A DNA stretch of 62,735 bases from positions 1 through 62,735 of the IMG/VR virus record IMGVR_UViG_3300042448_001551; one strand, 5' to 3'. The notes beneath the pieces were generated by a model. That model searched no databases, was not told where the DNA came from, and saw nothing but the letters and a program-made list of their open reading frames with translations. The position numbers and the translations under genes are program-made. The DNA comes from a virus (taxonomy: Duplodnaviria; Caudoviricetes). Positions within the stretch are counted from its first letter, which is position 1; every line of letters begins with the position of its first letter. Below, piece by piece: positions 3,453 to 36,682 of this stretch.

Positions 3453-4046
3453 TTATCTTGTGTTTTTAATTAAATCATTTAACCAAGGTTTTTTACTCAC
3501 TGCTACATTTTTGGTAATAGCATAGTAGTCTCTAATAGTCATCTCACTATAAGGAGCATCTTCTATTGGAGCTGGAGCTTTTTGTGTAGCCGTAGGTTGT
3601 TTTATACCAATAGGTTTATCAACTACAGCTGAAGGACCACTAATAGCTACAGATGTATGATTTACAATTCTAAGTTCTTCAAAAGGAACTAAAAATGATC
3701 CTTTTTCATTTAAAGGATATTCTTCAGAAAAATTAGCATTTTTAGGACATTTGTAAACAGTTCTATTTTCATCTATTGGGTTTAAATAACGGTCTACTAA
3801 TTCAAAGTAGAAACCATCTTTTTTAAACTCTGAGGCAAAAATACCCACTACATTGTTCCCATTTTCATCTTTGAAAACCATTTTCATGTTAAAATCAAGG
3901 ATAGAAATACCAAGATCATTAATAAGATCCATGTTATCTTCTCTGATTTCATCTAGTTTTCTTTTTTTCCAAGCTTTATGCTCTTCATCTGACATTTTAG
4001 AAACTTCTAAAGCTGTTGTTGGTTTTCTGATTTTTTTGATTGCCAT
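3453..4046 (-). CDS. Hypothetical protein (replication block)
   Basis: 197-aa ORF, co-oriented and tightly packed; C-terminal MTIRDYYAI motif. Confidence 0.7.
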   Translation of the reverse strand: MAIKKIRKPTTALEVSKMSDEEHKAWKKRKLDEIREDNMDLINDLGISILDFNMKMVFKDENGNNVVGIFASEFKKDGFYFELVDRYLNPIDENRTVYKCPKNANFSEEYPLNEKGSFLVPFEELRIVNHTSVAISGPSAVVDKPIGIKQPTATQKAPAPIEDAPYSEMTIRDYYAITKNVAVSKKPWLNDLIKNTR

Positions 4047-4061
4047 AATGTGTGTTTTGTG

Positions 4062-5093
4062 TTATATAATATTTGGTTGTTGAGACGGTAATTGTAAACC
4101 ACCACTACCTTTTTTAGACGGTGGAGGACCCACTTCAGCCATTCTTTGTCTTCTACCATCCATCTTTAAAAAGATTATGTTTTCATCACTATCACTACCA
4201 TTTCTGATCTTAATAAGATGCATAAAAACATCCTCTGGACCACATACATATTGCTTAGGTCCATAAAATGGAATATTTGCTTTAAAGGGTCTATTTAAAA
4301 CACCTATCATATCAGAACCTTGCATTAATGCATCACCACCAAATATATCTGCGGATGTAGGATAGTTACCTATCTTTCCAGGTTCTTTCCTAGAAGATTC
4401 ATCTATGCTTCTATTTAGCTGTGTAATCATTAAAACAATAATAGGAATTTTGTTTTTGAGCTGCATAATCATTTCAGTGGTATTATAAAGAGTTTGGAGC
4501 TTTTCTTTCTCATCATTTCTCTTTTTAATTAACCAACTATGATCTATAGTTACAATCATTGGTTTAGCACCCCATTCTACATAAGCATCTAGAATGGCTT
4601 TTTCCATTTCTGTAGAAGTTATAGATTTAGAAATCAGTTCTCTCTTTAAACCAACTTTTTCCATAGCTTCACAATCAGCTATGTAATCTTTAAGTTGTTT
4701 AAGAACAAATCCATCTAACTCTTTTTTAGTACTTAGCATTTCACCATAGTCCATAGCCATATGACCAGCAAACTGTCTAGCAGCATACTGTTCATCTCCC
4801 ATTTCAAATTGAAATTCTAAAATATTAAAAGCTTGTTTAGGATTGATAACTCTAGCTTCTCTTAAAATTTGACTAACAATCATGGTTTTTCCTGCTCCAG
4901 GTCTAGCTCCTAATGTAAGCATAGAACCCCATTCTAAACCATCTACTCCTGCTTCATTAAAAGAAGCCCAAGGTGTTCTTAAAGATTGAATAATACCTTG
5001 TCTACGTTTATCTATGTAAGTGTAACCTTTTTTTAAGACCTCTGAGAAAGGTCTACGACCAAATTTGTCATCATTTATTTCTTCTGCTGCCAT
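4062..5093 (-). CDS. dnaB: DnaB-like replicative helicase
   Basis: GARPGAGKT Walker A, FEMG, IDH, TQLNR and a D..G..ALMQ.SD motif. The likely start is MAAEE at 5093. Confidence 0.9.
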   Translation of the reverse strand: MAAEEINDDKFGRRPFSEVLKKGYTYIDKRRQGIIQSLRTPWASFNEAGVDGLEWGSMLTLGARPGAGKTMIVSQILREARVINPKQAFNILEFQFEMGDEQYAARQFAGHMAMDYGEMLSTKKELDGFVLKQLKDYIADCEAMEKVGLKRELISKSITSTEMEKAILDAYVEWGAKPMIVTIDHSWLIKKRNDEKEKLQTLYNTTEMIMQLKNKIPIIVLMITQLNRSIDESSRKEPGKIGNYPTSADIFGGDALMQGSDMIGVLNRPFKANIPFYGPKQYVCGPEDVFMHLIKIRNGSDSDENIIFLKMDGRRQRMAEVGPPPSKKGSGGLQLPSQQPNII

Positions 5094-23171: not shown

Positions 23172-24345
23172 TTTGATTTGTGTTTATTGGTTTATTAATA
23201 ATTGCTGTGTATTCTTTTGTATCAGAATTGTATAACCACCTTCTTAACTCAGGAGAACTAATATTACCATTATAATCTCCATTGTACTCTTTAATACCAT
23301 TATATACTTCGTCAGTTATCCTTTCTGTACGTTTTATTTCATTTATTTCGGTTTTTACATCTGTACCTACTGGAAACATTTGCTTACATACTTCTAATGG
23401 AGATAGTTCTTTTTTAGGTATATCATTTATATTTTTTCCACCATTATTGTAAAAAGTTATCTCTTCTGGTGTGGCTAGTCTCCATGATGATTTATCTGCT
23501 GATGATCTAGATTTTGTATAAAATAAGTCATCTTTTTCACTAGCTGGTAAAACTCTAAAAATATCTCCTATTTTTCTAGCACCACCAACATCTCTTAATG
23601 AAACCACTGTATCTCCTATATATATTCCTGGAAATACTACCATTCTTTCTATTTTCTTTTTTTCTTCTGTAATAAACTTAGGCATACCATATTCATAAAA
23701 AGTATCAAAAGATATTAGAGGACCAGAATTGTCCATACCTGTATGAAATTTTTTCTCACTACCATAAATAAATAAGTAATTATCATGATCTGAACAATCA
23801 TGATTAAGTTTCCATCCTTGGGAAATAAACCAGTTTACAGCATGTTCCATATGCTCTTTACTGGGAAGATTAAAAGATTTAGCAGTTGGAATAGGTTTGA
23901 ATTTATTACTAAGTTCAGCGCATACACCTTCTTTTACAGGAACATCAGTACATTCAGCCCATACACCATTATTATAAACAAGTCCTTCATCTTCTTTTAA
24001 AGCAATCATTTTTTTATCATACCAATATGGATAGTCATATTTAATATTTTTATGATGACTTCCTATTGTATCAATATAAGAACATCCACTTGGAAATCTT
24101 TCCATAGCGTCTTGAAGAAGCGCATCTTTATAATTCTCAAAATAAAGATCATACATCCCATGATCTCCTATACGATAACCATCTTTAGATCCATTTTCCC
24201 ATAATACTGTTACCCAACCATTTTTTAAGTTTTCTATTATAACACCTGTTTTTCCTCCTCCATCTTGATTTCCATAAACCCAATCTTTCCCTCTTATCAC
24301 TTTAGCCCCACTTATGGGGTATTTCACGGATATTATTGTGCTCAT
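22972..24345 (-). CDS. Multidomain protein with an N-terminal MIB/HERC2-like (SH3-fold) domain
   Basis: GAKVIRGKDWVYGNQDGGG..G......WVTVLWENG....YRIG..GMYDL. Confidence 0.75.
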   Translation of the reverse strand: MSTIISVKYPISGAKVIRGKDWVYGNQDGGGKTGVIIENLKNGWVTVLWENGSKDGYRIGDHGMYDLYFENYKDALLQDAMERFPSGCSYIDTIGSHHKNIKYDYPYWYDKKMIALKEDEGLVYNNGVWAECTDVPVKEGVCAELSNKFKPIPTAKSFNLPSKEHMEHAVNWFISQGWKLNHDCSDHDNYLFIYGSEKKFHTGMDNSGPLISFDTFYEYGMPKFITEEKKKIERMVVFPGIYIGDTVVSLRDVGGARKIGDIFRVLPASEKDDLFYTKSRSSADKSSWRLATPEEITFYNNGGKNINDIPKKELSPLEVCKQMFPVGTDVKTEINEIKRTERITDEVYNGIKEYNGDYNGNISSPELRRWLYNSDTKEYTAIINKPINTNQNGSSNNKNTEGNSNIERQNERGIKVQRPHIKIPTTVRSGGAGLKSSDCKVRFGSNSSYHQKRLSSS

Positions 24346-24677
24346 GCTGTTTCATTTACGCAGTCAAAAATATGTTGTATTCTCATATTCCAATATTTTC
24401 TACTATGTACTGGATACCAATGTCTTCCCATTGGATCTTTTTTCCATAATCTTGGGGCTTTATTATATAATTCTGGTAAAAATAATTCTAAAAAGTAAAC
24501 ATTATTATAATTCCATTTTGCATGTAATTTTTTAACTTTACTATTTGATTTATAGTTGTCAAATATTACACGATGTATATAATGACATATTCCTTGACTA
24601 AGATTTGGATCTTTTACTGTAAAATCTAATAGTCTTTTGTAAAATTTGTGTCTATCTTTTTTTGTTAATTTTGTCAT
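24342..24677 (-). CDS. Hypothetical protein
   Basis: 111-aa ORF with an ATGA overlap to the next gene. Confidence 0.6.
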   Translation of the reverse strand: MTKLTKKDRHKFYKRLLDFTVKDPNLSQGICHYIHRVIFDNYKSNSKVKKLHAKWNYNNVYFLELFLPELYNKAPRLWKKDPMGRHWYPVHSRKYWNMRIQHIFDCVNETA

Positions 24678-24707
24678 ATTATAAGATTTTAATGTTTAAA
24701 AAATAGC

Positions 24708-24779
24708 GGTGTATGTTGGGACTCGAACCCAAATTTCATCCTCCCGTAGATGCGTACTAGCCTTTATACTACAAACACC
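24708..24779 (-). tRNA. Degenerate tRNA (His-like G-1:C73 acceptor, 6-nt anticodon loop)
   Basis: G-GTGTTTG-TA-GTAT AAAGGCTA GTAC-G-CATCT ACGGGA GGATG-AAAT-TTGGG TTCGAGT CCCAA-CATACAC-C. The cloverleaf is intact, but the anticodon loop is 6 nt and no CCA is encoded. Confidence 0.7.
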
Positions 24780-24811
24780 TTTGTGTTTAAGGTACACAAT
24801 TGGAAACCTAT

Positions 24812-25054
24812 TTATTCAAATATTTTACTAAGCTTAGAAATAACATTGTTATTTTCTGCTTCTTGTATAGACAAAACATTTAACTCAGATTGAATTTTAG
24901 CTTTTTGAGCTTTCTTTTCTTCAGCCAATGTTTGAATGTCTTCATTTACTAGTCTTAACTCCTCCATTGTTTTACTAAAAATATTAGTAATATTTTTAGA
25001 ACGTTTTTGGAGCATTTCTAAGGTTCTTTCTGTAGATTGTTGAAAAAGATTCAT
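24812..25054 (-). CDS. Coiled-coil hypothetical protein
   Basis: 80-aa ORF preceded by TAAATTTG on the minus strand. Confidence 0.65.
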   Translation of the reverse strand: MNLFQQSTERTLEMLQKRSKNITNIFSKTMEELRLVNEDIQTLAEEKKAQKAKIQSELNVLSIQEAENNNVISKLSKIFE

Positions 25055-25130
25055 AAGTTTTATTTTGGCAAATTTAATAAAACATTACCATTTTACTGGA
25101 ACTTCTCCATAATTATCTTATTTTTGTATT

Positions 25131-25709
25131 ATGGAAAATAAATATGTTGTGTATTTACATTATACAAAAGATAATAATAAAGTTTTTTACGTGGGTGAGG
25201 GAACAATACGTAGATCAAAAACACGTTCTGGTCGAAATATTTATTGGCAGCGTGTTGTAGCAAAACATGGTTTTACTGTTAAAATAATAGCCAATAATCT
25301 TACTAAAATTGAAGCTCTAAAACTAGAAAAGTTAACAATTAAAGGCTTAAAACGTACTGGGTACAATCTTACAAATTTAATAAATTCTTCAATTGGAAAT
25401 AATAATATTGGTAAAAAAAATCCTAAATTAAAAGAATGGAATATTAAACATTCTGGAAAATTACACCCAATGTATGGAACTAAACGTCCAGATACTGCTC
25501 TTAGAAATAAATTAACTGCGTCAACTCGTAAAAGAACTTTTAAACCAGTTAGATGTATTGAGACAGGTTTAGAGTTTCCTTCTTTAATTTCCGCAGTAAA
25601 ATATTGTGGAAGAAAAAAACATCATAATTTATCTGAACATCTAACTGGTAAAAGAAAAACTGCTTTTGGTTTTACATGGGAGTTTATTAACGTTTTGAAT
25701 CAAGGTTAA
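25131..25709 (+). mobile_element. Free-standing GIY-YIG homing endonuclease with NUMOD-type C-terminal domains
   Basis: YVVYLH...FYVGEG...R is a GIY-YIG variant; HPMYG and KPVRCIETG..FPS are NUMOD-like. It is inserted against the direction of the operon. Confidence 0.8.
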
Positions 25710-26646
25710 TTAGTAAACCCCCTCCTGATCCAGAAACTACTTGAGGTACTCCTCCTGACCATTTTTGTACTTTTAAATAATCAATATATAACGGTGTTAA
25801 ATATTGTTGTTCTTTTTTAACAGCTTCAGCTCTACCAGCAGCTGCAATTACAGCTTGTGCAGAATCACCTTTAGCTGTAGCTATTTTAGTCTGAGCTTGA
25901 GCTTCAGCTACTAACTTTTGTTGGATAGCACTTTGAGCTTCTTGTACAGCTTTAGTTTTTGCATTAATAGCTTCTGTAATTTCTTTTGGAGGAAGAATAT
26001 TAGTTCTTAATTGACTTACATTAAACCATTTAGAAACTCTTTTATTACATTCTTTTACTATATCAGACTCAAACTCAGCTCTGTGGTTAAAAATAGAATC
26101 CACTGTATATAAATTAGCTACGTCATTAACTGCTCCAATAATAGCATTTTTTAACCATGTATCTCTGATATCATCTACGTCTTTCTTTAGAGATTGATAC
26201 ATATCAGCTGCATTAGCTGCATTTACACTCCAGTTAAAACTTGGTTTAATTATTGCTTGAAATCCACCTTTTGTAATAATAGATGTTTCTTCATAATCAA
26301 TGTGTTGTTGTGTAGTGGGATATTCTTTAATTCTACTCAACCATGAGTTGTAAAATACCCATCCCGTAACATATACAGTCTTAGATACTCCACGCTCATC
26401 ACCCGTGTTATTCACTTTAAGTCCTACATTACCCACATCAATCCTTTCAACACTTATTGGATTGATTATAGTAATAACAAAACTTCCTACAATCACTGCT
26501 AAAAGAATTAACAGTTTCTTGTCATTAAAACCTTTGTTAACATCTCCAAATCTGTCTTTTGTTTCAACAGAATAAGAACCCTTAAAAACTCCAAAAATTG
26601 CACCCAGTATTAAAAAGGATGCTACTAAAACTAAAAAACTAATCAT
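25687..26646 (-). CDS. SPFH/band-7 (prohibitin-like) membrane protein
   Basis: N-terminal TMs, IDVGNVGLKV, an Ala/Gln-rich coiled coil and KWSGGVPQV. Confidence 0.85.
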   Translation of the reverse strand: MISFLVLVASFLILGAIFGVFKGSYSVETKDRFGDVNKGFNDKKLLILLAVIVGSFVITIINPISVERIDVGNVGLKVNNTGDERGVSKTVYVTGWVFYNSWLSRIKEYPTTQQHIDYEETSIITKGGFQAIIKPSFNWSVNAANAADMYQSLKKDVDDIRDTWLKNAIIGAVNDVANLYTVDSIFNHRAEFESDIVKECNKRVSKWFNVSQLRTNILPPKEITEAINAKTKAVQEAQSAIQQKLVAEAQAQTKIATAKGDSAQAVIAAAGRAEAVKKEQQYLTPLYIDYLKVQKWSGGVPQVVSGSGGGLLINLDSKR

Positions 26647-26848
26647 TGTTTTTAATTATATTGGTTATTAAATAAAATACAAATTTACCTAAATGGATTA
26701 CTAAAAAAATCCATAAAAACATTAATAATGATATTGCCACTCCTGTTAATAAGAGATCATTATTTTTAGAAGCAAAATCTCCTAAATAATATATTAAAAC
26801 TAATGTTAATATAAAATGAAAGAATAATAAAATACTTTTTTTAATCAT
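26639..26848 (-). CDS. Small two-TM membrane protein
   Basis: Hydrophobic ORF coupled to the SPFH gene. Confidence 0.55.
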   Translation of the reverse strand: MIKKSILLFFHFILTLVLIYYLGDFASKNNDLLLTGVAISLLMFLWIFLVIHLGKFVFYLITNIIKNND

Positions 26849-27103
26849 AATATAAAGTTTATTACACATATCTTAGGGACTGCATTTCTAAGTTAGTACA
26901 CATCATTACTACTTTCTTTATAAACGCATTCATTTCTGAATCTAGTCAATATAGATTTCATTCTGTGTCTTATAATTAATACTATACAGGCTCCTAAGAT
27001 CATGTAAAAAGTTCAGTATCACGGCCCCCCTTGTTTATGGCTAATCTTATCATAAACATAAATTTATATAAAAGTAGGATAAACAGATGGGGGCGTGACA
27101 CTA

Positions 27104-27310
27104 TTAAATTCTTTGTTTTAAGATGGAAAGCTCTTTATTTATACGCTCCACATCTTTATCAGTTAAAGGAATATTACTAAGTGTCTGATCAGATTTTTTA
27201 GGAGCTTTCATTCCTTTCTTTAACTGATTTTCCAGACGTTCTATAACTCTTTCTCTTCTAGACTTTGCTTGAGGTGTACCATTAAAACTTTTAGTTGATT
27301 TATTACTCAC
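27104..27310 (-). CDS. Small basic hypothetical protein
   Basis: 68-aa ORF with a GTG start. Confidence 0.55.
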   Translation of the reverse strand: MSNKSTKSFNGTPQAKSRRERVIERLENQLKKGMKAPKKSDQTLSNIPLTDKDVERINKELSILKQRI

Positions 27311-27323
27311 TGTTTATATAGTT

Positions 27324-27608
27324 TTATTTTAATAATATTGTTGTATGACTTTTACCAATTCCATTGGAATAACGAGATATTACACCTGCCACCATTAAAG
27401 ATTTAATACTTCTTTTAACTGTAGAAGGTGTAATATTTAAATCAGCTGCTATTCTATTAACAGATACAAATAATGAGTTAGATTCACTATCTGCATAAAG
27501 AGATAGATATGCATAAACTGCTTTATCCCTTAATGAAATAGCTGGATCTTTTATAACCAAAGAGGAAACTTGACCAAAGCCATCTTTCAATCTTGGATTT
27601 TTACTCAT
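27324..27608 (-). CDS. Winged helix-turn-helix DNA-binding protein
   Basis: KAVYAYLS.YA......SVNRIAADLNITPSTVKRSIKSL...GVI. Confidence 0.8.
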   Translation of the reverse strand: MSKNPRLKDGFGQVSSLVIKDPAISLRDKAVYAYLSLYADSESNSLFVSVNRIAADLNITPSTVKRSIKSLMVAGVISRYSNGIGKSHTTILLK

Positions 27609-27619
27609 TATTTAATGAT

Positions 27620-28291
27620 TTATTCTTCATCAGAATTTAAAAGAATGTTGTTAAGCATAGAATCAACTTCTTTAGTTGATTCTTTTACATAATCTAATAA
27701 CTCTTGATCTTTATAATTTTCAGCTAAAATCTTTAAATAATCTGTAAAATTATGTTTTGATTTAATTATAAAATCAACACGTTTTAATAAAGTGAATGGA
27801 TCTAATTTATTAATAGGAAGTTCATTTTTATTAGATAAATTAAATAAAGAATCATCATCGTCATCATCGTCATCAGATTTTCTAGTAATTTCTAAATGAT
27901 CTCCAAACTTTTCTTTAAGTTCACCAAGCATCTTTAACATATTAATAGCAGTTTTTTCTTCTTCACTCATTTCATCATTAATCTGAGCAAGATGAGCGTT
28001 TATAGTTTGTAAAGAAAGCTTATGAAAATTATTAAACATTAATAGAGTGTAAGCATATTCTTCTTCAGAATTTACTAACTTCATACATCTTTCAAGATCT
28101 CCAGTTGCTGTTCTCATTTCTCTTGGAGCATCTTTTTTATTTTCACCATAAAGATTATTTAAAACAAGAGCATTAACCATAGTAACAAAAAATATTCTTT
28201 CTCTTGATACCATAATTAATACATCTTTTATACCTAATGCTCTGTTAAACATTGCTTCTTCATGTTTATAACAGTTTGTTTTTAAATACAT
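27620..28291 (-). CDS. Hypothetical protein
   Basis: 223 aa with a poly-Asp tract. Confidence 0.7.
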   Translation of the reverse strand: MYLKTNCYKHEEAMFNRALGIKDVLIMVSRERIFFVTMVNALVLNNLYGENKKDAPREMRTATGDLERCMKLVNSEEEYAYTLLMFNNFHKLSLQTINAHLAQINDEMSEEEKTAINMLKMLGELKEKFGDHLEITRKSDDDDDDDDSLFNLSNKNELPINKLDPFTLLKRVDFIIKSKHNFTDYLKILAENYKDQELLDYVKESTKEVDSMLNNILLNSDEE

Positions 28292-28374
28292 AATATTTAA
28301 TTTAAAAAGATTAAAAAATGCGTAAAGGGGAGTATAGAAATACTCCCCTACGACTTTAAATTATGAAAACAAAT

Positions 28375-28767
28375 TTATAACGTCTTAGTTATTTCAGACG
28401 CAATACGTTTAACAAATTGATCTGCTGTTTCTCCATCATTAGATGTAAACCCTTCTATAATAATTTTATTATATACAGATTCATATGTTGGAATAACACC
28501 AGTGTGACTAATGTTTACTGAACAAGTTGAATAATGAAAGTCAACAAATGTTTTAGGATACTTATCTCTTAAAATATTTATTTTGTTACTTATTTCACCT
28601 TTTAGTTTAGCTTGTTGTTGAGCTAATTTCTCTAATTCTTTATAAACTTTATCTTTTTTATAAGCTGCATCTTTTTTTGCTCTAATGTCTGTAGCTTGTA
28701 ATTTAATGTTAGTTAAGACTTCTGTTGCTAAAGCTTTTGCAATTGTAGGCGTAATTTTTGTGGCCAT
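28375..28767 (-). CDS. Hypothetical protein
   Basis: 130 aa, followed by a hairpin at 28326-28350. Confidence 0.7.
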   Translation of the reverse strand: MATKITPTIAKALATEVLTNIKLQATDIRAKKDAAYKKDKVYKELEKLAQQQAKLKGEISNKINILRDKYPKTFVDFHYSTCSVNISHTGVIPTYESVYNKIIIEGFTSNDGETADQFVKRIASEITKTL

Positions 28768-29030
28768 GATAATACGTTTTTTTGATTGTTATTTCTTTTT
28801 GATTTAAACAAAAAATTGTTTTTACATTCTTGAATGTCAATGTATTTAATATTATTACCAACTTGTACTTCTATTATTGTAGAACCTACATTAGTAAATC
28901 CACTAACATTAAATTTTTTAAACCACTCTTCTAGGCTTAATTCTCTTTCAGTTTTAGTCATCAGAATTGTTTTTTTGGTCTCTAAAATTTTTAAATCTTT
29001 TAATAACTTCTTCTGGTCCACCTTTAGCAA
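28728..29030 (-). CDS. Hypothetical protein (true start probably internal, MTKTERE)
   Basis: Co-oriented ORF overlapping both neighbours. Confidence 0.45.
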   Translation of the reverse strand: MLKVDQKKLLKDLKILETKKTILMTKTERELSLEEWFKKFNVSGFTNVGSTIIEVQVGNNIKYIDIQECKNNFLFKSKRNNNQKNVLSWPQKLRLQLQKL

Positions 29031-29193
29031 TTGCTATTTCCTTAGAAAGCAACATTGAACAAAACATAGACAGTTCTTTTGTAGCTCCTATGTTTTCAGG
29101 ATTTTCTATAACTTTTTCAGCTGCTTCTTTAATTTTTTTAGCCAATTCTTCAACGGGCATACTAGCAGCTAGCATGATGATTAACTCCTCCAT
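28954..29193 (-). CDS. Hypothetical protein
   Basis: 79 aa with an A-rich leader. Confidence 0.6.
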   Translation of the reverse strand: MEELIIMLAASMPVEELAKKIKEAAEKVIENPENIGATKELSMFCSMLLSKEIAIAKGGPEEVIKRFKNFRDQKNNSDD

Positions 29194-29336
29194 AATTGTT
29201 TTTTTTTTAAAAGGTTGAATAAGATTTTTTCTTTACTACATATCTGCATCCAGTTTTAGGTGCAGAACAAGATGTTATGCTAAATATAGCCCAAGCTAAT
29301 AAAGCTGTATATAAAGCTAAAATGATTAGTGATTCT

Positions 29337-29624
29337 TTATTTTTCTTCATTTACTAGTTTTTTAATAGATAATCTTTTTGGAAAGTTTTCATCTTTAGCA
29401 ATTCTAAATATTTCTCTTTCAGAAATACCAGTTATTTTAGATATTTTAGTGATAGATTTAAACTTAATTATATCCATCCAACATTTTTTTATAATGCCCA
29501 CTTTCATATCTTGGATATTTAAATTGTCATTTTCATTGTAAATGATTGTTGGAAACTTTTCACATAAATTAACATAATTAGTATTTCTTTTTCCCATGTT
29601 TAATCTTTTATTAATGAATAACAT
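29337..29624 (-). CDS. Hypothetical protein with a C-terminal HTH-like segment
   Basis: SITKISKITGISEREIFRIAK. Confidence 0.5.
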   Translation of the reverse strand: MLFINKRLNMGKRNTNYVNLCEKFPTIIYNENDNLNIQDMKVGIIKKCWMDIIKFKSITKISKITGISEREIFRIAKDENFPKRLSIKKLVNEEK

Positions 29625-29737
29625 TCTAGTGCATGCTCATAATTAATAGCCCAAATTCTAAATCCGTCTATAATCCACATGCATTTACCTGATTTAAGAT
29701 TTATTTCATCAGGTGGTGGATTTAATTGATTTTCCAT
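29600..29737 (-). CDS. Small hypothetical protein (45 aa)
   Basis: Manual translation MENQLNPPPDEINLKSGKCMWIIDGFRIWAINYEHALECYSLIKD. Confidence 0.5.
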   Translation of the reverse strand: MENQLNPPPDEINLKSGKCMWIIDGFRIWAINYEHALECYSLIKD

Positions 29738-29907
29738 TATCTTTTACGTTTAAGTCTAAAATAAGTGGACCAAAATTTTTCTACATAATAATGAACTAAT
29801 TCTTTCGGGTGTTTAAAATCCCAATTCCATAATGCTTCACATAAAAGTATGAAATAAGCTGGAATAAAAGTTATTGTTAATATTAAGAATTTTAATATGT
29901 ATTTCAT
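29737..29907 (-). CDS. Small membrane protein (56 aa)
   Basis: Manual translation MKYILKFLILTITFIPAYFILLCEALWNWDFK... Confidence 0.45.
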   Translation of the reverse strand: MKYILKFLILTITFIPAYFILLCEALWNWDFKHPKELVHYYVEKFWSTYFRLKRKR

Positions 29908-30217
29908 TGTTTAATGAATTTTAATGGTGATAAAATAGAGTCCCCACGTAGAAACGCAGGGACTTGTCATAAAAATAATACAAACAGTTTTTGACATGTT
30001 TAGGTCAATAATATATGGTTAATGTTTCTTTATTAACGTGGTAACAAATGCCCACGGAGTATCCACTTGTCTAGAACTTAGTAAGAAGTCCTCAATCTTC
30101 TTTGATTTATAATCTAGAATATTAACAAAAAAAATATGTAGAAAATTCTACATATTAAGATCACACGTCTTTCATCTAATATTAGATCCCTTCGTTAACT
30201 TCCTGTGTGATAAGATT

Positions 30218-30595
30218 TTAAATTAAATTAAATTTGGTTAGTTTATCTCTACTTTCTTCTTTATTTATGTTCATCAAGTAATTCTGGACATTAGTAATGA
30301 TTTTTTTATTATAAACACTATTTAAAAATCCTAATGTTATAGGTTTAGTGACAACATTACTTTTATCTATATTATTATTTTTAAAATCACTAATGGCAGA
30401 TAGTATTTGATTTTTATATCCAGAGTTTCCATTAATAAGATTTATTGTTTTATTAGTTAAAAAACCATTAACAACAATTCTTAATTGATGAACTTTAAGT
30501 CCTTTTTTAAATGTTATAATATACTCATCATAACCATCATGGACAAAAGAATCATTAATTTTTTCATATTTAGCAATTTTAAAATTTATTTGCAT
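30218..30595 (-). CDS. Hypothetical protein
   Basis: 125-aa ORF. Confidence 0.65.
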   Translation of the reverse strand: MQINFKIAKYEKINDSFVHDGYDEYIITFKKGLKVHQLRIVVNGFLTNKTINLINGNSGYKNQILSAISDFKNNNIDKSNVVTKPITLGFLNSVYNKKIITNVQNYLMNINKEESRDKLTKFNLI

Positions 30596-30736
30596 ATATA
30601 ATTATTTTTTTAAATATAAAAATGTAACTTTTAAATTACCCCCAGAGTTACCAACTGTGTCAACATACGATTTGAAACTCAAAACAGATCTTACGGTATG
30701 TAATAGTTGTCTTCGATCCTTACACTTAGGCTATTG

Positions 30737-30840
30737 TAGTCAGGACAGGAATGACCCTGTTTAGGTGTTTTAACATTAAACTAGTATTACATTGGAATTG
30801 ACCAATATCTCCTAATGACTTTTTGTTCGTCACCTGACTA
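30737..30840 (-). ncRNA. tRNA-like element A (TAGTCAGG...CCTGACTA)
   Basis: 8-bp acceptor-like stem, TGAC/GTCA D-like arm, expanded TTAGG/CCTAA middle arm and ACAGG GTCATT CCTGT T-like arm. Confidence 0.55.
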
Positions 30841-30846
30841 TAAAAT

Positions 30847-30925
30847 GAGGGTGAGAAACCCTCTGTGTTGTGGGACTACCTATCCCATAGTTCATTACAG
30901 ATTCCTTTCTCAAGGGAACAACACA
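30847..30925 (-). ncRNA. Three-way-junction RNA motif, copy A
   Basis: TGTGTTGT/ACAACACA closing stem, TCCCTT GAGA AAGGA hairpin, TGGGA/TCCCA hairpin, then a GAGGGT/ACCCTC hairpin. Confidence 0.6.
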
Positions 30926-30931
30926 CATTTT

Positions 30932-31216
30932 TTAACTATCAAATACCACCATCATTCTTTCAATCCACGGATGAGCTTCAAAGAATGCTGTAACCCATTT
31001 GACTTGTTCTTCATTATATTCTTCAGGACGGTCTATTAAATCTTGTTTAACCCAATATACTTTGTTCCCATCGTAAGATACAATATTATTATCTCTAACA
31101 AAATCACAACATTTATTCCAACTCAAACCCATAGATGCATTTTCTGAAATAAATCTAATTAAATAAGCATCATCGACATAATGTATTTGTTCTTTTTCAA
31201 ATAAAACTGGTTTCAT
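30932..31216 (-). CDS. Hypothetical protein
   Basis: 94-aa ORF between the two RNA modules. Confidence 0.65.
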   Translation of the reverse strand: MKPVLFEKEQIHYVDDAYLIRFISENASMGLSWNKCCDFVRDNNIVSYDGNKVYWVKQDLIDRPEEYNEEQVKWVTAFFEAHPWIERMMVVFDS

Positions 31217-31231
31217 ATTATTTAATTTTAG

Positions 31232-31299
31232 TAGTCAGGACAGATTATGATTCTGTAACTTAGCCTATCGACTCTGCTTTACTTTAAGCTACCTGACTA
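31232..31299 (-). ncRNA. tRNA-like element B (TAGTCAGG...CCTGACTA)
   Basis: TAGTCAGG-TA-GCTT AAAGTA AAGC-AG-AGTC GATA GGCT-AAGTT-ACAGA ATCATAA TCTGT-CCTGACTA, with a 4-nt anticodon-position loop. Confidence 0.6.
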
Positions 31300-31410
31300 T
31301 ATTAAGTTGTAAGTAAACCACTTAGGGACTATCATTAATGCTCTTTACCTTCTTAACTTCTTTATCATTAATGAACCCTTTACCGTTCAGTACTATTAGT
31401 ACCAACTTGA

Positions 31411-31498
31411 TGAGGATAGAAATTCCTTCATGCGTTGTAGAGAACGTTATTTATTACTCTCTTATCCTAGTTTATTCCTTTTCAAAGGGAACAACGCA
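31411..31498 (-). ncRNA. Three-way-junction RNA motif, copy B
   Basis: TGCGTTGT/ACAACGCA closing stem, TCCCTTTGAAAAGGA hairpin, AGAGAG/TTCTCT arm, then a TGAAGGA/TCCTCA hairpin. Confidence 0.6.
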
Positions 31499-31657
31499 AT
31501 TTTGCTCCTTATTCTCTTACCCCTTTATATCAGAGCTATCCTGCTTATCTAAGGAATTAACCTATAATACGAGTTTCTCAGGGATACAGGAAATAAAAAC
31601 AACTAATGATTTTTTTACTTTTCAGTATTAACCATTAGTTGTTTAAACTTTTTTTAT

Positions 31658-32083
31658 TTAAACAGTATAATACTGCTTAATAGTAACAACTTTTAAATTG
31701 TCTACCATTTTTGTAGAAACTTGTTCTTCAAAAATCATATTTCCAACTTTTTTAGTAGCAATATTCTTTTTGTTAACAAACTCCACATTCTTACTTTTAA
31801 CCATAAATTGGTCTTGCATAGTTTCTCTAAGACCATTTTTTCTATACCAAGCACTTTTAACAGCTTTAATATGCATTCCCATTTGTTTTGCTATTTTTTC
31901 AAAAGCAGTTTCCAAGTTTTGTGGAGACTTTTTAAGTTCTTTAGCAAATAAATCAATGGTTTTTTGACTGTGCCAGCTAGTGTTTCTTTTCATTTTTGTG
32001 ATTTTTGGTTTAAAAAAAAGTTTATAATTGAGGGAGAGCCCATTCAAGAAGTTCTTTTTGTTCATCTTCATACCAACTATCAT
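31658..32083 (-). CDS. Basic hypothetical protein with an HTH-like segment (true start probably MKRNTSW)
   Basis: AFEKIAKQMGMHIKAVKSAWYR. Confidence 0.6.
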   Translation of the reverse strand: MIVGMKMNKKNFLNGLSLNYKLFFKPKITKMKRNTSWHSQKTIDLFAKELKKSPQNLETAFEKIAKQMGMHIKAVKSAWYRKNGLRETMQDQFMVKSKNVEFVNKKNIATKKVGNMIFEEQVSTKMVDNLKVVTIKQYYTV

Positions 32084-32387
32084 TCACCTTAGATAAATTA
32101 TCAAGTTGATTTTGAACGTCAAATTTTTCTTGTATAACTTGCAAATAACTTTGACCAAAGTTAGCAAGTCTTTTTTGCAAATCTTCAGAATTTATATCTT
32201 CAGAATAAAAAGCATCAAATTCTGATTGAAATGCATCACAAACACTACAAGAACCATAAGAACCAGTTACTAGTCCTTTTTTATTATTATACTCCACTAT
32301 ACACCCCCAAGTTCCTTGGTAACTTCCTGCATAATGTGTATTTAACACTTTAGCTCCTGCTGCTGCTAACGCTGATTCATAACCCAT
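32022..32387 (-). CDS. Hypothetical protein
   Basis: GSYQG and YGSCSVCD motifs. Confidence 0.7.
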   Translation of the reverse strand: MGYESALAAAGAKVLNTHYAGSYQGTWGCIVEYNNKKGLVTGSYGSCSVCDAFQSEFDAFYSEDINSEDLQKRLANFGQSYLQVIQEKFDVQNQLDNLSKVNDSWYEDEQKELLEWALPQL

Positions 32388-32459
32388 ATATAAATAAATT
32401 TAGTAATGATAAAATAAATGGGAACCAGAGCCTTTCAGCCCCAGTTCACCATAATAATT

Positions 32460-32666
32460 TTAGCTTAGTTTTTCATCAAGATCTGATAAAATAACTATTC
32501 CTGGTACCCAGCCAAAAACAACTGTTACCATAAGTACTCCTCCAGATGTACAAGCTTCTTTAAAGCTTATATCTAAATTTGTAAATAAATAATTTAATAG
32601 CCCTAAAAATAACCAGGTTAATAAAATACTTGCTATAAAAGCTAGCATCATAATTGTGTTTTTCAT
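32460..32666 (-). CDS. Small two-TM membrane protein
   Basis: Likely start MKNTIMM; hydrophobic. Confidence 0.6.
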   Translation of the reverse strand: MKNTIMMLAFIASILLTWLFLGLLNYLFTNLDISFKEACTSGGVLMVTVVFGWVPGIVILSDLDEKLS

Positions 32667-32691
32667 ATAATAGATTTTAATGATGACAAAA

Positions 32692-32757
32692 TAAAAAAGC
32701 TGTAACAAGAGGTTTTACTAAGAGACATTGTCCTACTTAGTTACATTGTTACAGCTG
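32692..32757 (-). terminator. Terminator or processing hairpin at the 3' end of the candidate large ncRNA
   Basis: agctgtaaca/tgttacagct 10-bp stem followed by a U-run on the minus strand. Confidence 0.55.
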
Positions 32758-32759
32758 GA

Positions 32760-33700
32760 TTTCTCAATCTTTGATTAATAGAATAAGTAATCAAGGATGA
32801 CCTTATTTCTAAAATGTCCCCTAAACAACAACATAGCTTGATTTAATGTTGTATAGGAAAATAATACAATATGTATTATTCCTTTATCAAAGATTGGGGT
32901 GTGTTCCTCATGCACTCAGTTGTAATATTACTACCGTGGAGATCAACCCACCCAACTCTATAGTTATATCATATTAATATAACTCCTATCCTCGTATTAT
33001 TACAAACTGTCTCATTCTTAGATTGATTAACTTTAATTACAGGCAATATTACCTTCCCCTACATAGCACCCACTCTATTGTGAGATTTATATGCAGATTC
33101 GTTTGTTAATCAGATCTTTTTACATCTTGGGAGCTGATTAAAACCTTACTACATCTAACTATATAGCAAGTTTATACATTCTTTACAGCTGGCATTTAAG
33201 GAGAATAGTTAGTTCTTAGCCAATACTGTGGTGTTGTATTATTAATCAGATGTCCCAAGAAAGAATGAATAGTGCATAAAGGAATAAGTTTTGTTTTAAG
33301 GACTCAAGGGTCGGTCAACCCTTGATTTATATTTTATAAAAATCTCATTGGAACTACACACGACCTGAATGTATAGCTAATGTCTCCACATCACCCCAAT
33401 AAGATCGACTCTATACTAACTTTTAGTATATCATCTGTTATCTGGTCCACCACAAACCAGGGAGAGAAATAGACGTGTGGTTTTTACGTCTACGAAACGG
33501 TTGTACCATTACTGGTCGTTTAACTGTTACCTCTAAGCTTAACCGTAAATTTAGAGATTCAGTGCTTGATTTTATAGTCTGCACTAACTTAGCATTACAT
33601 AGAAAGGAATGTTTATCTATGTTTAATACTCTCACCCTTATATGAGAGAACACTATAGTAGCCCCACAAGCTTGTCACAGTTTATTAATCCGTAAAGAAG
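32760..33700 (-). ncRNA. Candidate large structured non-coding RNA (about 950 nt)
   Basis: No credible ORF in an otherwise gene-dense genome, many local hairpins and several long-range helices (see findings). The strand is inferred from the flanking genes and the terminator. Confidence 0.55.
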
Positions 33701-33713
33701 AAAGAGAGCCTTT

Positions 33714-33872
33714 TTACAGACTCTCTATTTTTTCTGTTGTAGTTATAATAATTTTGCTTACATACATAACATTGCATATAAGCTTATCATCCCCATATAA
33801 CTGCTCATCTTTTATCTCTATTTTTCTGTAAATAGAAGGAATTTCAGCAATTATAACAATAAATACAGACAT
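33714..33872 (-). CDS. Small hypothetical protein (52 aa)
   Basis: Manual translation MSVFIVIIAEIPSIYRKIEIKDEQLYGDDK... Confidence 0.4.
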   Translation of the reverse strand: MSVFIVIIAEIPSIYRKIEIKDEQLYGDDKLICNVMYVSKIIITTTEKIESL

Positions 33873-33908
33873 ATATTAGGTTTTTGGTTATAAAAAGAAA
33901 GAGCCCTG

Positions 33909-34196
33909 TTACAGGCCCTTTAATTTTTTATAAATTTTCTCAGCTCTTTCCCAATTAGATGATATAAACTCTGGTATTCTGGTTCTTTCTGGATAACGGT
34001 CATCTCCACCATAACAATGGTAACCTTTTAGAATAACTGCATAAGTAACAGTTAAAGGTTTACCATCTTCCCAGTTTTTAATAAGTATAAACTTATCACT
34101 CAGTTCAAAGCTTTCATCTTGGTTAGATTCTGCCATCATACATAAATGACCACAAATTTCATTTGCAATCATTTCTTTAGTAATTTCTATTGTCAT
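33909..34196 (-). CDS. Hypothetical protein
   Basis: Likely start MTIEITKE. Confidence 0.6.
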   Translation of the reverse strand: MTIEITKEMIANEICGHLCMMAESNQDESFELSDKFILIKNWEDGKPLTVTYAVILKGYHCYGGDDRYPERTRIPEFISSNWERAEKIYKKLKGL

Positions 34197-34317
34197 AACA
34201 ATAAAACATTTGGTGACCTCTATAGACAGTGCCGTCTTGTACACCACGTTGGGCTTAAAGAGCATTTCTGCACACCGTTATCTGTCTATAGAACGCACAA
34301 GGCCTAACACCACCTTG

Positions 34318-34539
34318 CTAAAATGGGAGAGTTCCTCCATAAGCTTTATGAACATTAGTTTTTGGTTGTTGACCAAAATAATGATCTTGAAACTCATCCA
34401 CTGAAGAATACTCTCTAAGACCATACTCTTGTACTAACATATGTAATTCTTGAGGAAAAACAGATATGTAATTTTCAAGAGCTCCTGCATAAGGTGGAGC
34501 AATAATAAGTTGGTCTCCTATAAATCCTAATATTTCCAT
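34318..34539 (-). CDS. Hypothetical protein
   Basis: 73 aa, ending in LPF. Confidence 0.6.
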   Translation of the reverse strand: MEILGFIGDQLIIAPPYAGALENYISVFPQELHMLVQEYGLREYSSVDEFQDHYFGQQPKTNVHKAYGGTLPF

Positions 34540-34695
34540 ATAAAGTTTTTAACAATTAAATAATATATAGCTATCTCATCCGCAAACTTGAATCCATTTT
34601 AGAGAGGTTTTTTAAACTAAAAGATAACGTGGAAGTGGTTCTATCACTCTCACCACACTGCGTAACTCCCACGTTATCAATCAGTTATGAAGGGA

Positions 34696-34842
34696 TTAGT
34701 AAGTAATCACCACCATAACTCTTCTCTCACTTGTGTTCCACTTAATGAATGCACAAGCAAGTTGTCTGAACTTAGTCTTCATGGATGTATACCATGTTCT
34801 GAACAGCTCAAACGTTCTAAATGAAAGTCTTCTAGATTTCAT
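34696..34842 (-). CDS. Small basic hypothetical protein (48 aa)
   Basis: Manual translation MKSRRLSFRTFELFRTWYTSMKTKFRQLACAFIKWNTSERRVMVVITY, flanked by hairpins. Confidence 0.45.
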   Translation of the reverse strand: MKSRRLSFRTFELFRTWYTSMKTKFRQLACAFIKWNTSERRVMVVITY

Positions 34843-34948
34843 GTTAGATTGTTTTAAGGGTTAGTAAATAAGAAAGCACAAGCAAGTTATTGTTATGGAT
34901 TATTATAACTTATAAGATGCTTGTACCTTCCTTTAAAAAAACAGAGGA

Positions 34949-35221
34949 TTATTCCTCTGTTAAACCGTTTGCGTCTATAGAGCCAAATAGCTCCACAGCA
35001 CCGTTTACAAACCAGTATGAACCTTTAAGGTGTTCATAGCTTTTACCCTTTTTATCTTCACCACCCTGATGTTGGGTAATGAATACTTCTTTTTTCCAGT
35101 CTATCTTCTCAGCTACGAAGATAGTACCTACTGGAGTAGAAGCAAATGCTCTACCTTTACCTTTTAAAAGGTCGATTTTCTGTAGTCCACAGACTTCCAG
35201 AAATTGTCTTAGTGTCATCAT
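34949..35221 (-). CDS. Hypothetical protein, first gene of the leftward arm
   Basis: 90-aa ORF next to the strand switch. Confidence 0.7.
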   Translation of the reverse strand: MMTLRQFLEVCGLQKIDLLKGKGRAFASTPVGTIFVAEKIDWKKEVFITQHQGGEDKKGKSYEHLKGSYWFVNGAVELFGSIDANGLTEE

Positions 35222-35321
35222 ATAGTTTAGATTTTAAGTACGGGTACCAAATGCCCTATGAGTAAGGAGGGGAGCTTTAAGTAGTAGGTCCCAACACACT
35301 ACTATATAGAATAGTTTTACC

Positions 35322-35446
35322 ACGGGGGGTCTTTTGTACAGAAAGCTTACGGGGGGTGTTTAAACTTCTAGAGGTAGCACCAGTGACCCCCTAACATAGT
35401 AATAAGTTAATATTAATAGTATTATATAGGGGTCACCAGTGATCCC
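35322..35446. repeat. GC-rich direct and inverted repeats at the strand switch (candidate origin, terminus or control region)
   Basis: ACGGGGGGT at 35322 and 35349; CACCAGTGAYCCC at 35378 and 35434; GTGACCCC/GGGGTCAC inverted pair around an AT-rich core. Confidence 0.55.
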
Positions 35447-35461
35447 ACGAGAGAATTAAAG

Positions 35462-35492
35462 TTTGGCTGTATAAAAAATAGTTTTACATTTG
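35462..35492 (+). promoter_or_regulatory. Bacteroidota primary-sigma promoter
   Basis: TTTG (35462-35465), a 19-nt spacer and TACATTTG (35485-35492) match the -33/-7 consensus. Confidence 0.75.
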
Positions 35493-35496
35493 ATTT

Positions 35497-35715
35497 ATGG
35501 AAAATAAAGATAAAGTGATTTACACAGACTTAGACAGTGTGATAGACTTATTTGAAGAGGGAGATCTTTCTTCTGATGAACTTGCCTTTCCTTATTACAA
35601 GGGAGGTGTTGGTAGTGATGGTCAAAAGCTAGTGAGCTGGGTACATAGGAGTGAGCTTGAGAACTATCTCATTTTAAGAAAGACTTATAATAACAGTCTT
35701 TTAAAGAGACAATAA
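35497..35715 (+). CDS. Hypothetical protein
   Basis: 72 aa, directly after the promoter. Confidence 0.65.
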   Translation: MENKDKVIYTDLDSVIDLFEEGDLSSDELAFPYYKGGVGSDGQKLVSWVHRSELENYLILRKTYNNSLLKRQ

Positions 35716-35784
35716 AATATATTTTATTATTACATATAATAGAAGTAAATTTGTATAGTTTAAACTTTTTAAGTATATTGTATT

Positions 35785-35997
35785 ATGACAGCAGTTGTAA
35801 AAAACCAACAAGAGAGTCAGTTAAGTTATTACTTACAGACGACAAACAAATACGGTGAGCCAGTTAACATTCCAGTTATAGATGTTAGAGATGGGTTAGC
35901 TGAGAGAATGCTAGGAGAACAGTTTATAAAGTCTAGCAATCGTAGTAAGTATATAACATATAATGAATACCATATTTCACGCAAAAACCAAAAATAA
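35785..35997 (+). CDS. Hypothetical protein
   Basis: 70-aa co-oriented ORF. Confidence 0.6.
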   Translation: MTAVVKNQQESQLSYYLQTTNKYGEPVNIPVIDVRDGLAERMLGEQFIKSSNRSKYITYNEYHISRKNQK

Positions 35998-35998
35998 T

Positions 35999-36289
35999 AT
36001 GATTCACATTTGTAACATACAGTGTTTAACAATGGATCAAGAAGAAGCCAGTCTATTAAATATAAAAGACAAGGGTAAGTGGCTTCCTTTTATGTTTAAG
36101 CTAGATATAGTGGAAGCAATTAAATTGGCATCAGATGAACCAGATGCTTTAGCATATGAAAAGACTTCTGTTTTTACCAATGGGGGTGATGTATATGTTA
36201 TAGACACCCCGTTTGATGTTTTCCAAACTATATTTATAAAACACAATATTGAGGGTCATCTTCCAGATAGGGAGGAACCCTCTTTTTAA
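35999..36289 (+). CDS. Hypothetical protein
   Basis: Likely start MIHICNIQC. Confidence 0.65.
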   Translation: MIHICNIQCLTMDQEEASLLNIKDKGKWLPFMFKLDIVEAIKLASDEPDALAYEKTSVFTNGGDVYVIDTPFDVFQTIFIKHNIEGHLPDREEPSF

Positions 36290-36310
36290 TTTTAAAAACC
36301 AATAAGCATT

Positions 36311-36682
36311 ATGAAAGACCAAGAACAACCAAAAGCTCCTTCTAAAGAAGAAGTGATTGCTTTCTTAAAAGAACAGATTGAGGTGAAATCAGTTCAATTA
36401 GAACTACAGAAGATTAACACCAGTCTTGCAATAGAAAAAGCAGAAGAGTTAAAAGCTTTGTCTATTATTGGACAAATTACCAACCCAGGGTCTAGAGAAG
36501 ATTCTTATAAAGGAGGCACTCCTCACATTTTAACAAAAGAGGATATGGAGTTAAATCCTGAGCTTGCCGAGGAAGGACTTAAAGAAGGAGACACTATTGT
36601 TATTCCAGATGGAGAATCAGTGGAGTCTTTAAAAGATGAAGCCCCTACAGTTGAGAAAAAATCTAAATCTTTAAAAAAGTAA
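36311..36682 (+). CDS. Hypothetical acidic protein
   Basis: HILTKEDMELNPELAEEGLKEGD motif. Confidence 0.7.
   Translation: MKDQEQPKAPSKEEVIAFLKEQIEVKSVQLELQKINTSLAIEKAEELKALSIIGQITNPGSREDSYKGGTPHILTKEDMELNPELAEEGLKEGDTIVIPDGESVESLKDEAPTVEKKSKSLKK

Follow-up and report, generated by a model that had tools for sequence, protein, structure and literature searches.

The minus strand of the window, the whole 62,735-base stretch of the IMG/VR virus record IMGVR_UViG_3300042448_001551 that was analysed here, contains a Hatchet self-cleaving ribozyme followed by a long tail free of open reading frames (ORFs) and by a terminator-like element. The tail is real, non-coding, and unusually self-complementary, and it is very probably transcribed together with the ribozyme. 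We see an even chance that this locus makes a Hatchet-processed, modular structured non-coding RNA in an accessory cassette, as a variant of the RNA islands that accompany ribozymes in crAss-like phages. The ribozyme itself is one more unremarkable member of a known family, found in the usual kind of phage. A first-pass annotation, made from the letters of the window alone, had proposed an RNA of about 950 nucleotides (nt) here; a non-coding, strongly folding region of about 1 kb stands on the minus strand, but its 5' 136 nt are a known ribozyme. The elements of the locus are as follows (positions are those of the window; bp, base pairs).

33703-33726, minus strand: P0 hairpin with a 9-bp stem (four G-C pairs) and a 6-nt loop, 3 nt before the first position of the ribozyme model
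33564-33699, minus strand: Hatchet ribozyme, a full-length match to RF02678
32758-33563, minus strand: tail of 806 nt, ORF-free, strongly folding, and without a known family according to ORF, Pfam, Rfam, and fold tests
32687-32756, minus strand: terminator-like element, an 11-bp stem (32756-32746/32708-32698; pair probability 0.98) around a smaller hairpin, then a U-run

Hatchet ribozyme and source phage

The Hatchet model matched 33564-33699 on the minus strand with 74.1 bits (gathering threshold, 51; E = 2.2e-13) along its entire length (model positions 1-133 of 133), and this was the sole gathering-level Rfam match in the window. The conserved UC/U (the slash marks the cleavage site), CAA, UGUGGGGC, GUGCAGAC, and AAAAUCA elements are all present in the alignment. 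The conserved nucleotides of Hatchets have been described in the P1-P2 linker and in the internal loops between P2 and P3 (PMC6154101), and the published cut is at a C-U dinucleotide at the base of P1 (PMC6154101; PMC4604424). In the window, UUC/U is aligned to model positions 1-4, which places the C-U dinucleotide at C33697 and U33696. From this alignment and the published position, we infer a cut between these two nucleotides. Mg2+-dependent self-cleavage is putative here.

A P0 hairpin a few nucleotides before P1 is reported for approximately 90% of Hatchets (PMC4604424). The hairpin at 33726-33703 (9 bp) had been annotated as the boundary of the candidate RNA; it is present, and it is the P0 of the ribozyme. 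It encloses the stop codon of a small upstream ORF (33714-33872) and has a terminator-like appearance. Two local hairpins noted at 33561-33585 and 33629-33648 also exist, but as parts of the ribozyme. The Hatchet identity therefore takes the novelty away from the 5' 136 nt and the boundary hairpin, and the RNA gains a defined strand and 5' end. A strong Rfam match, which the first-pass annotation had named as the outcome that would confirm the RNA at the expense of its novelty, was found for the 5' part, but the remainder has no known family. A relative represented in sequencing runs X22 and X23 has two substitutions in its Hatchet that preserve the predicted pairs (A-U to G-U and G-U to A-U), and its 3-nt insertion lies in a loop.

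The terminase of the window is approximately 25% identical to those of crAss-like phages of Bacteroides, Flavobacterium, and Cellulophaga (130 records matched, all below 60%). Because the identity is only at this level, we regard the window as a distant crAss-like phage. Parts of the stretch were found in 22 lake-water metagenome DNA runs, 11 of which contained at least half of the sampled words; uncovered parts and the low-share runs X23 and X24 were not used as evidence on habitat or absence. Most known Hatchet copies sit in crAss-like phages according to a preprint (10.64898/2026.03.07.710320). The present copy resembles them in its full-length model match, conserved core, C-U dinucleotide, P0 hairpin, and location in a crAss-like phage, whereas its lake-water phage has only the above approximately 25% terminase identity to gut crAss phages. 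No Hatchet was detected in 53 related phage records (0 of 50 terminase relatives, from the 80 loci of the terminase search, and 0 of 3 whole records).

Coding capacity of the tail

The region had been noticed as the largest ORF-poor stretch of the window, which holds at thresholds of 50, 60, and 80 amino acids (aa). The largest ORF-free gap is 729 nt (32709-33437) when ORFs of at least 50 or at least 60 aa are considered, and 1200 nt (32709-33908) for ORFs of at least 80 aa. Between 32916 and 33437, the minus strand has no ORF that reaches 30 aa. No long frame appeared in the tail under the standard code, with TAG read as Gln, with translation table 4 (TGA sense), or with TAA read as Gln. A six-frame Pfam scan of the tail with masked stops gave one sub-threshold match only (13.2 bits versus a cut-off of 25). 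The start-site motif AAAATCWATTATATG, for which we counted 10 matches with up to two mismatches in the whole window versus 2.8 expected, is located before both flanking small genes and is not in the tail. The tail lacks a coding signal. Short ORFs do occur (46 aa at 32775-32915 on the minus strand; 43 and 56 aa on the plus strand), but with no long frame in any of these codes, no Pfam match above the cut-off, and no start-site motif, it is very improbable that the tail hides protein-coding sequence in an alternative code, in small ORFs, or as decayed genes.

Predicted fold of the tail

The minimum free energy (MFE) of the tail on the minus strand was -226.3 kcal/mol, compared with -176.2 ± 7.7 kcal/mol for 25 dinucleotide shuffles (z = -6.49); the z value of the plus strand was -4.95. 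For the longer stretch 32690-33700, the MFE was -284.1 on the minus versus -242.1 on the plus strand. The tail contains 23 perfect inverted repeats of at least 8 nt, compared with 7.6 ± 2.7 in 300 dinucleotide shuffles, none of which reached 23. Its G+C content is 34%, and its identities with the rest of the window are no longer than 15 nt.

The z value of the tail was the most extreme among the 19 stretches of the window that were tested, including seven coding controls and four ORF-poor gaps on both strands. The coding stretches, which had the same length as the tail, gave values of -0.34 to -4.18 on their sense strands. Among the gaps, 26647-27323 gave -5.1 on the minus and -2.5 on the plus strand, and 34540-34948 gave -5.0 and -2.6, respectively. 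The minus-strand values of 29625-30217 and 35222-35962 were -3.0 and -1.7.

The predicted minus-strand fold consists of five parts. Two hairpins directly 3' of the ribozyme are followed by a group of five hairpins and a three-way junction (33493-33304). The third part is a 380-nt multi-branch domain with three sub-domains, which is closed by the helix 33284-33271/32916-32904. The fourth is a domain of 132 nt whose closing helix has 11 bp (32896-32886/32775-32765; mean pair probability, 0.98), and the last is the 11-bp stem at 32756-32698 with the following Us. The stem and U-run had been given as the other bound of the candidate RNA, and the stem was found at 32756-32746/32708-32698 with its Us after it on the minus strand.

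The three long-range complementarities listed in the first-pass annotation are all literally present in the sequence. Two of them are part of the MFE fold, namely the pairing of atcaaagattg with caatctttgat, which is the 11-bp closing helix of the fourth part, and that of 33260-33242 with 33141-33125 (mean pair probability, 0.96-0.98). The third, between 32893-32901 and 33392-33400, had been suggested as a possible switch; it lies outside the MFE fold, in which 33406-33395 pairs with 33352-33341. The remaining local hairpins (32860-32880, 33304-33325, 33412-33430, and 33470-33492) all appear in the fold with 8-10 bp.

Block-wise variation in lake relatives

Contigs from four runs were compared over 31000-36000. 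In the metatranscriptome run X23 (84 Mb), three of the four contigs on this region lie within 32855-33675, and the fourth is a poor 49-nt match with five differences at 31501. These contigs derive from relatives and not from the window phage itself. One of them runs through 32855-32928, continues with 74 other letters, returns to 33134-33249 with one difference, and then enters unlike sequence. Another covers 33425-33492 with one difference, followed by 74 other letters and the ribozyme (33563-33675). This jump is also present in a DNA contig of run X22, where it leads from 33497 to 33563. The part at 33294-33497 has three differences in X22, and a contig of X24 covers 33294-33395 without a difference. 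The tail can be divided into the following blocks.

33493-33562, minus strand: variable block with two hairpins, swapped in relatives (RNA-run and DNA-run contigs)
33294-33492, minus strand: nearly unchanged block with five hairpins and the three-way junction (contigs of relatives from three runs)
33134-33249, minus strand: 116-nt hairpin domain with an 8-bp closing helix (33249-33242/33141-33134; mean pair probability, 0.96), retained whole in a relative although its flanks differ there
32929-33133, minus strand: 205-nt variable block, in place of which a relative has 74 other letters
32765-32896, minus strand: 3' domain with the 11-bp closing helix and three inner hairpins; the X23 relative retains a part of it (32855-32928)

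The kept block 33134-33249 ends exactly at the arms of its closing helix, and the swapped block 33493-33562 spans exactly from the last base of the ribozyme to the first base of the next hairpin. The coincidence of block edges with predicted helix ends fits exchangeable structural modules.

An accessory cassette

The ribozyme and tail belong to a swappable segment of the early arm, which is listed below with its genes and with the gene that follows it.

32687-34284, minus strand: swappable cassette of 1598 nt, comprising the 95-aa gene, the 52-aa gene, P0 and Hatchet, the tail, and the terminator; absent from the related records L225-L227
33909-34196, minus strand: first cassette gene, encoding a small Cys/His protein of 95 aa (20 homologues, 53-100% identity, typically 88-97 aa)
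33714-33872, minus strand: 52-aa ORF upstream of the ribozyme, taken from the ORF list, with a two-mismatch copy of AAAATCWATTATATG before its start and no family found
32460-32666, minus strand: gene of a small hydrophobic protein of 68 aa, 31 nt after the terminator stem, with an exact start-site motif at 32664-32678

In the related records L225-L227, the site of the cassette holds 375 nt with one different small ORF, versus 1598 nt in the window. The flanks are preserved: a 39-nt junction (34323-34285) is 100% identical, and 32686-32388 is 94-98% identical. The downstream 68-aa protein has homologues in these records with 91-92% identity and the same start Met. A jump that skips the cassette was also found in a 12.4-kb contig (depth 59) of run X22. 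Among terminase-related loci, the late arm is syntenic and the early arm is hypervariable.

The 39-nt intergenic segment (34285-34323; 3597-3635 in L225-L227) is shared without a difference by phages that are unrelated on one side of it. Its start coincides with the stop codon of the upstream ORF; it has a small hairpin inside and looks like a recombination junction for swaps of early-gene cassettes.

The 95-aa family, with homologues from lake and marine metagenomes, has invariant C15, C19, and H60 and a GYHCYG motif. The protein had no Pfam or PHROG match, and it may bind zinc. None of the 11 metagenome loci encoding a homologue contains a Hatchet or the tail; therefore, the ribozyme and tail are not tied to this gene.

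Searches for homologues of the tail

No homologue of the tail was detected by blastn in 50,697 phage records, by nhmmer in 90 loci (L002-L091), by nhmmer at E ≤ 10 in 27 other Hatchet loci, by blastn and nhmmer in the 11 metagenome loci with the 95-aa gene, or by BLAST in three related whole records (L233 and L235 not among them). Because these collections may omit the records nearest to the window, the blank searches do not show that the tail is rare. An exact 19-mer of the tail occurred in nine loci of one unrelated phage family with 48% G+C, which is alike in those 19 letters only. Exact searches with a 22-mer hairpin in metagenome contigs and with a 23-mer hairpin in viral contigs gave no matches, and a pattern scan for the 3' part of the Hatchet gave a single unrelated Hatchet (L224). 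The neighbouring 118-aa ORF had no match in viral contigs; the neighbouring 121-aa ORF led to 10 loci with transfer RNA (tRNA) arrays, none of which has a Hatchet.

Comparison with other Hatchet loci and RNA islands

For comparison, we used the 27 loci with the full Hatchet motif among 80 of the at least 123 core-motif matches in IMG/VR, all 27 of which were confirmed with Rfam. The non-coding gap between the ribozyme and the next co-directional ORF is at least 111 nt in 27 of 27 loci. In 24 loci, the gap is 111-377 nt long; the longer ones are those of L121 (470 nt), L157 (709 nt), and L138 (1110 nt). With 897 nt to the next start codon, the window has the second longest gap of the 28. The folding of ten ordinary post-Hatchet stretches is unremarkable (z = +0.9 to -3.1), and the long ones of L157 (approximately 708 nt) and L138 (approximately 1109 nt) fold well, with z values of -3.67 and -5.65.

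In 21 of the 27 loci, the strand of the Hatchet carries additional Rfam RNAs at a distance of up to 2 kb: RAGATH-9 in 14; RAGATH-6, -7, -7-assoc, or -14 in 6; a second Hatchet in 4; and tRNAs in 7. Hammerhead ribozymes are also among these neighbours. Five environmental loci (L096, L106, L121, L122, and L157) have the Hatchet only, as does the window. Most RAGATH RNAs are described as lacking a known function (PMC11061315). The tail shares with the RAGATH islands of gut crAss-like phages that it is non-coding, structured, and on the same strand as a Hatchet, and its block modularity fits an array of separate motifs. As a kind, RAGATH-type RNAs are conserved, structured, and located beside a self-cleaving ribozyme; the tail is a candidate for this kind by its location and its excess predicted folding. 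In contrast to these islands, the tail has no RAGATH match at E ≤ 10: no RAGATH model was among the 14 Rfam matches obtained at this threshold, and the same search detected RAGATH-6, -7, -7-assoc, -9, and -14 elsewhere.

Lee et al. (bioRxiv 10.1101/2022.07.19.500677) report Hatchet-bearing 'viroid-like' RNAs of 357-567 nt from freshwater metatranscriptomes, which are called circular and have a median G+C content of 35%. As described there, these RNAs resemble the present locus in their freshwater origin, low G+C content (median 35% versus 34% in the tail), strong Hatchet matches, and highly paired predicted folds. Unlike them, the window has a single Hatchet in a DNA phage, and the contigs are colinear with the DNA, with no back-joints seen.

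Several arrangements at other Hatchet loci were observed in addition. Tandem Hatchets, approximately 240-280 nt apart on one strand, occur in gut crAss-like phages (L093, 1736-2092; L128 and L144, 1694-2099) and not in the window. A double cut at such a pair would free a unit that ends in a 5'-hydroxyl and a cyclic phosphate; such ligatable units may have given rise to the reported 'circular RNAs'. A tRNA gene lies 3' of the Hatchet on the same strand in L159 (approximately 270 nt on; 1637-2113) and L138 (approximately 950 nt on; 956-2108). The extra approximately 730 nt of L138 are ORF-free, have no Rfam family, and fold strongly, and the array upstream of its Hatchet consists of RAGATH-14, hammerhead, RAGATH-6, and RAGATH-7. 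The first approximately 60 nt after the Hatchet are 86-93% identical among otherwise differing gut loci (L094, L110, L129, L160, L163, and relatives). A non-coding block of approximately 130 nt, located 130-270 nt downstream of the Hatchet, is common to L093, L108, L123, L128, L138, L144, and L159. These similarities hint at conserved post-Hatchet elements in gut loci.

Proposed processing and alternative explanations

According to the reading that we prefer, an early minus-strand transcript would run through the 95-aa and 52-aa genes and be cut by the Hatchet between C33697 and U33696. The upstream messenger RNA (mRNA) would then have the P0 hairpin and a 2',3'-cyclic phosphate at its 3' end. 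Downstream of the cut, the product would be an RNA of approximately 1.0 kb that starts with a 5'-hydroxyl and the folded ribozyme and extends to the terminator near 32690, and it would be longer where the terminator is read through. The tail would represent one structured RNA module or several, associated with the ribozyme and outside all described families, as an environmental counterpart of the RAGATH islands around Hatchets in gut crAss-like phages. Because the cassette is dispensable and accessory, the tail probably serves host take-over or conflict and not core replication.

Several observations weigh against this reading. One of the related records without the cassette is 112 kb long and rated 100% complete, and it has neither the Hatchet nor the tail. 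No homologue of the tail was found in the collections searched, and the tail accordingly has no support from covariation or conservation. The 5' arms of the long-range helix 33284-33271/32916-32904 fall in the sequence that differs in X23, so that the global fold is not evidently kept in this relative. Excess folding is shared by two ORF-poor gaps of the same arm (z = -5.1 and -5.0) and by one coding control (-4.2). The RNA evidence consists of contigs that carry no strand, ends, or expression level, and DNA carry-over is possible. Furthermore, hairpin and U-run elements such as the one after the tail probably leak, because the 31 nt to the next start codon leave no room for a promoter. If the terminator leaks, the tail may be part of a longer mRNA.

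A more far-reaching interpretation, which we consider rather unlikely, is that the approximately 870 nt from the cut to the terminator constitute a new class of large modular RNA. Such an RNA would have a ribozyme-made 5' end (a 5'-hydroxyl, with the ribozyme fold kept as a cap), accumulate in infected lake bacteria, and act in trans, perhaps in phage-host conflict as a decoy or scaffold, with hairpin modules that pass between strains. Its analogues would be the long ORF-free stretches after the Hatchets of L138 and L157. Literature searches on Hatchets, RAGATH, and GOLLD/ROOL, limited to main texts, did not bring up a large RNA attached to a Hatchet.

It is likewise rather unlikely that the tail is a long structured 5' leader acting in cis. 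In that case, the ribozyme would split a polycistronic early transcript without a separate RNA product, and the leader would stabilise or regulate the downstream genes of small membrane proteins (68 aa, 121 aa, and further ones). All 27 other Hatchet loci have 111-1110 nt of non-coding sequence before the next co-directional ORF, which is consistent with a leader. The short distance between the terminator stem and the next start codon, in which a promoter would not fit, is also consistent with it, and L225-L227 likewise have a hairpin and U-run directly before the 68-aa gene. According to a suggestion in a review, ribozymes may divide polycistronic transcripts so that the resulting parts differ in stability (PMC6765202). 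However, the 897 nt of the window are three times the usual post-Hatchet length of 210-377 nt, and the tail folds far more strongly than the ten ordinary post-Hatchet leaders. In addition, the relatives have the same 68-aa gene without a ribozyme or tail.

We consider it unlikely that only the ribozyme is functional and the tail is unconstrained filler, a recombination patchwork that folds by virtue of AT-rich palindromes and leftover hairpins. No homologues of the tail were found outside near-identical strains, blocks with 97-99% identity are separated by sharp-edged swaps, and the early arm is hypervariable among relatives, all of which speaks for filler. Other ORF-poor gaps fold well too, and similar hairpins recur between genes. 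These points are opposed by the z value of -6.5, the most extreme of the 19 window stretches, by the match of block edges with helix ends, and by the assembly of the stretch from a metatranscriptome of 84 Mb. Moreover, phage genomes seldom retain 800 nt of useless DNA.

The first-pass annotation had favoured a GOLLD/ROOL-class RNA close to a cluster of tRNA-like elements. GOLLD and ROOL RNAs are of the order of 600-900 nt, originate from phages, lack coding capacity, and often have tRNA genes adjacent. The tail is similar in size order, phage origin, and absence of coding capacity, whereas it has no adjacent tRNA and carries a Hatchet at its 5' end; to our knowledge, a 5' ribozyme has not been described for GOLLD or ROOL. 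Neither family matched at E ≤ 10 in 32300-34300 or at E ≤ 1 in 24000-36500, and no family other than Hatchet came near its threshold in the former region. The tRNA cluster was not borne out: ARAGORN and Rfam gave one tRNA-like gene (24706-24779), approximately 8 kb away, and relaxed ARAGORN settings added low-quality calls only. Group I and II introns, RNase P, transfer-messenger RNA (tmRNA), OLE, and HEARO had no Rfam match in these scans, and ARAGORN with default settings gave no tmRNA. With only comparable size and phage origin in its favour, the idea that the stretch is GOLLD, ROOL, or another of these described large RNAs has a negligible probability.

The Hatchet is the least understood small self-cleaving ribozyme, and its biological role is not established. 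The present locus is a clean case: its P0 also serves as the 3' hairpin of the upstream gene, and a predicted cut site is followed by non-coding RNA of great length, which is predicted to fold strongly, and by a terminator. The presence or absence of the cassette in close lake phages offers a natural comparison for the role of the ribozyme and the appended RNA. If the tail is conserved and structured, a ribozyme-matured large RNA would join the short list of giant phage RNAs, and this would suggest that the Hatchet RNAs assembled from freshwater metatranscriptomes stem from DNA phages. If not, the locus is one more Hatchet copy, the first that this analysis has placed in a lake-water crAss-like phage.

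Genome context and additional observations

The window has an estimated completeness of 48% and a G+C content of approximately 30%. Its late arm, with terminase, portal, and major head protein, is on the plus strand from approximately 35963 onwards. The early arm, on the minus strand below approximately 35300, contains small genes together with a replication module comprising a primase, a DnaB-like helicase, AAA ATPases, and a UDG-like protein. In 31500-36500, we counted 11 terminator-like sites, compared with 2.0 ± 1.7 expected, and they lie between nearly all small genes. A sigma-70 promoter scan was uninformative (22 sites versus 21.3 expected).

A motif, (TT)AAAATC(A/T)ATTATATG, runs into the start codons of several small early genes in the window and in relatives. 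The start-site motif sites are as follows.

32664-32678 and 33870-33884: sites in the window
3700-3716, 4015-4033, and 4296-4312: sites in L225

For the lone tRNA-like gene at 24706-24779 (minus strand), ARAGORN leaves the anticodon unnamed ('gg' at position 35). It scored 42 bits with the Rfam tRNA model in the permissive scan and was absent from the first gathering-level scan. In some terminase relatives, the terminase gene is immediately preceded by one tRNA gene or two (L061, 9702-9772; L064, 9601-9758; L089, 9688-9758; L021, 9622-9703), and the equivalent place in the window has none. The distant relatives L003-L006 and L011, which were found through the 121-aa protein, contain arrays of 4-11 tRNA genes approximately 3 kb downstream of a phrog_28969 homologue; no such array is present in the window. 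At E ≤ 1, the only Rfam match in the gaps 26647-27323 and 34540-34948 (minus strand) was a 22.6-bit microRNA-family match at 34612-34687, and these gaps are perhaps further structured RNAs or clusters of intergenic hairpins.

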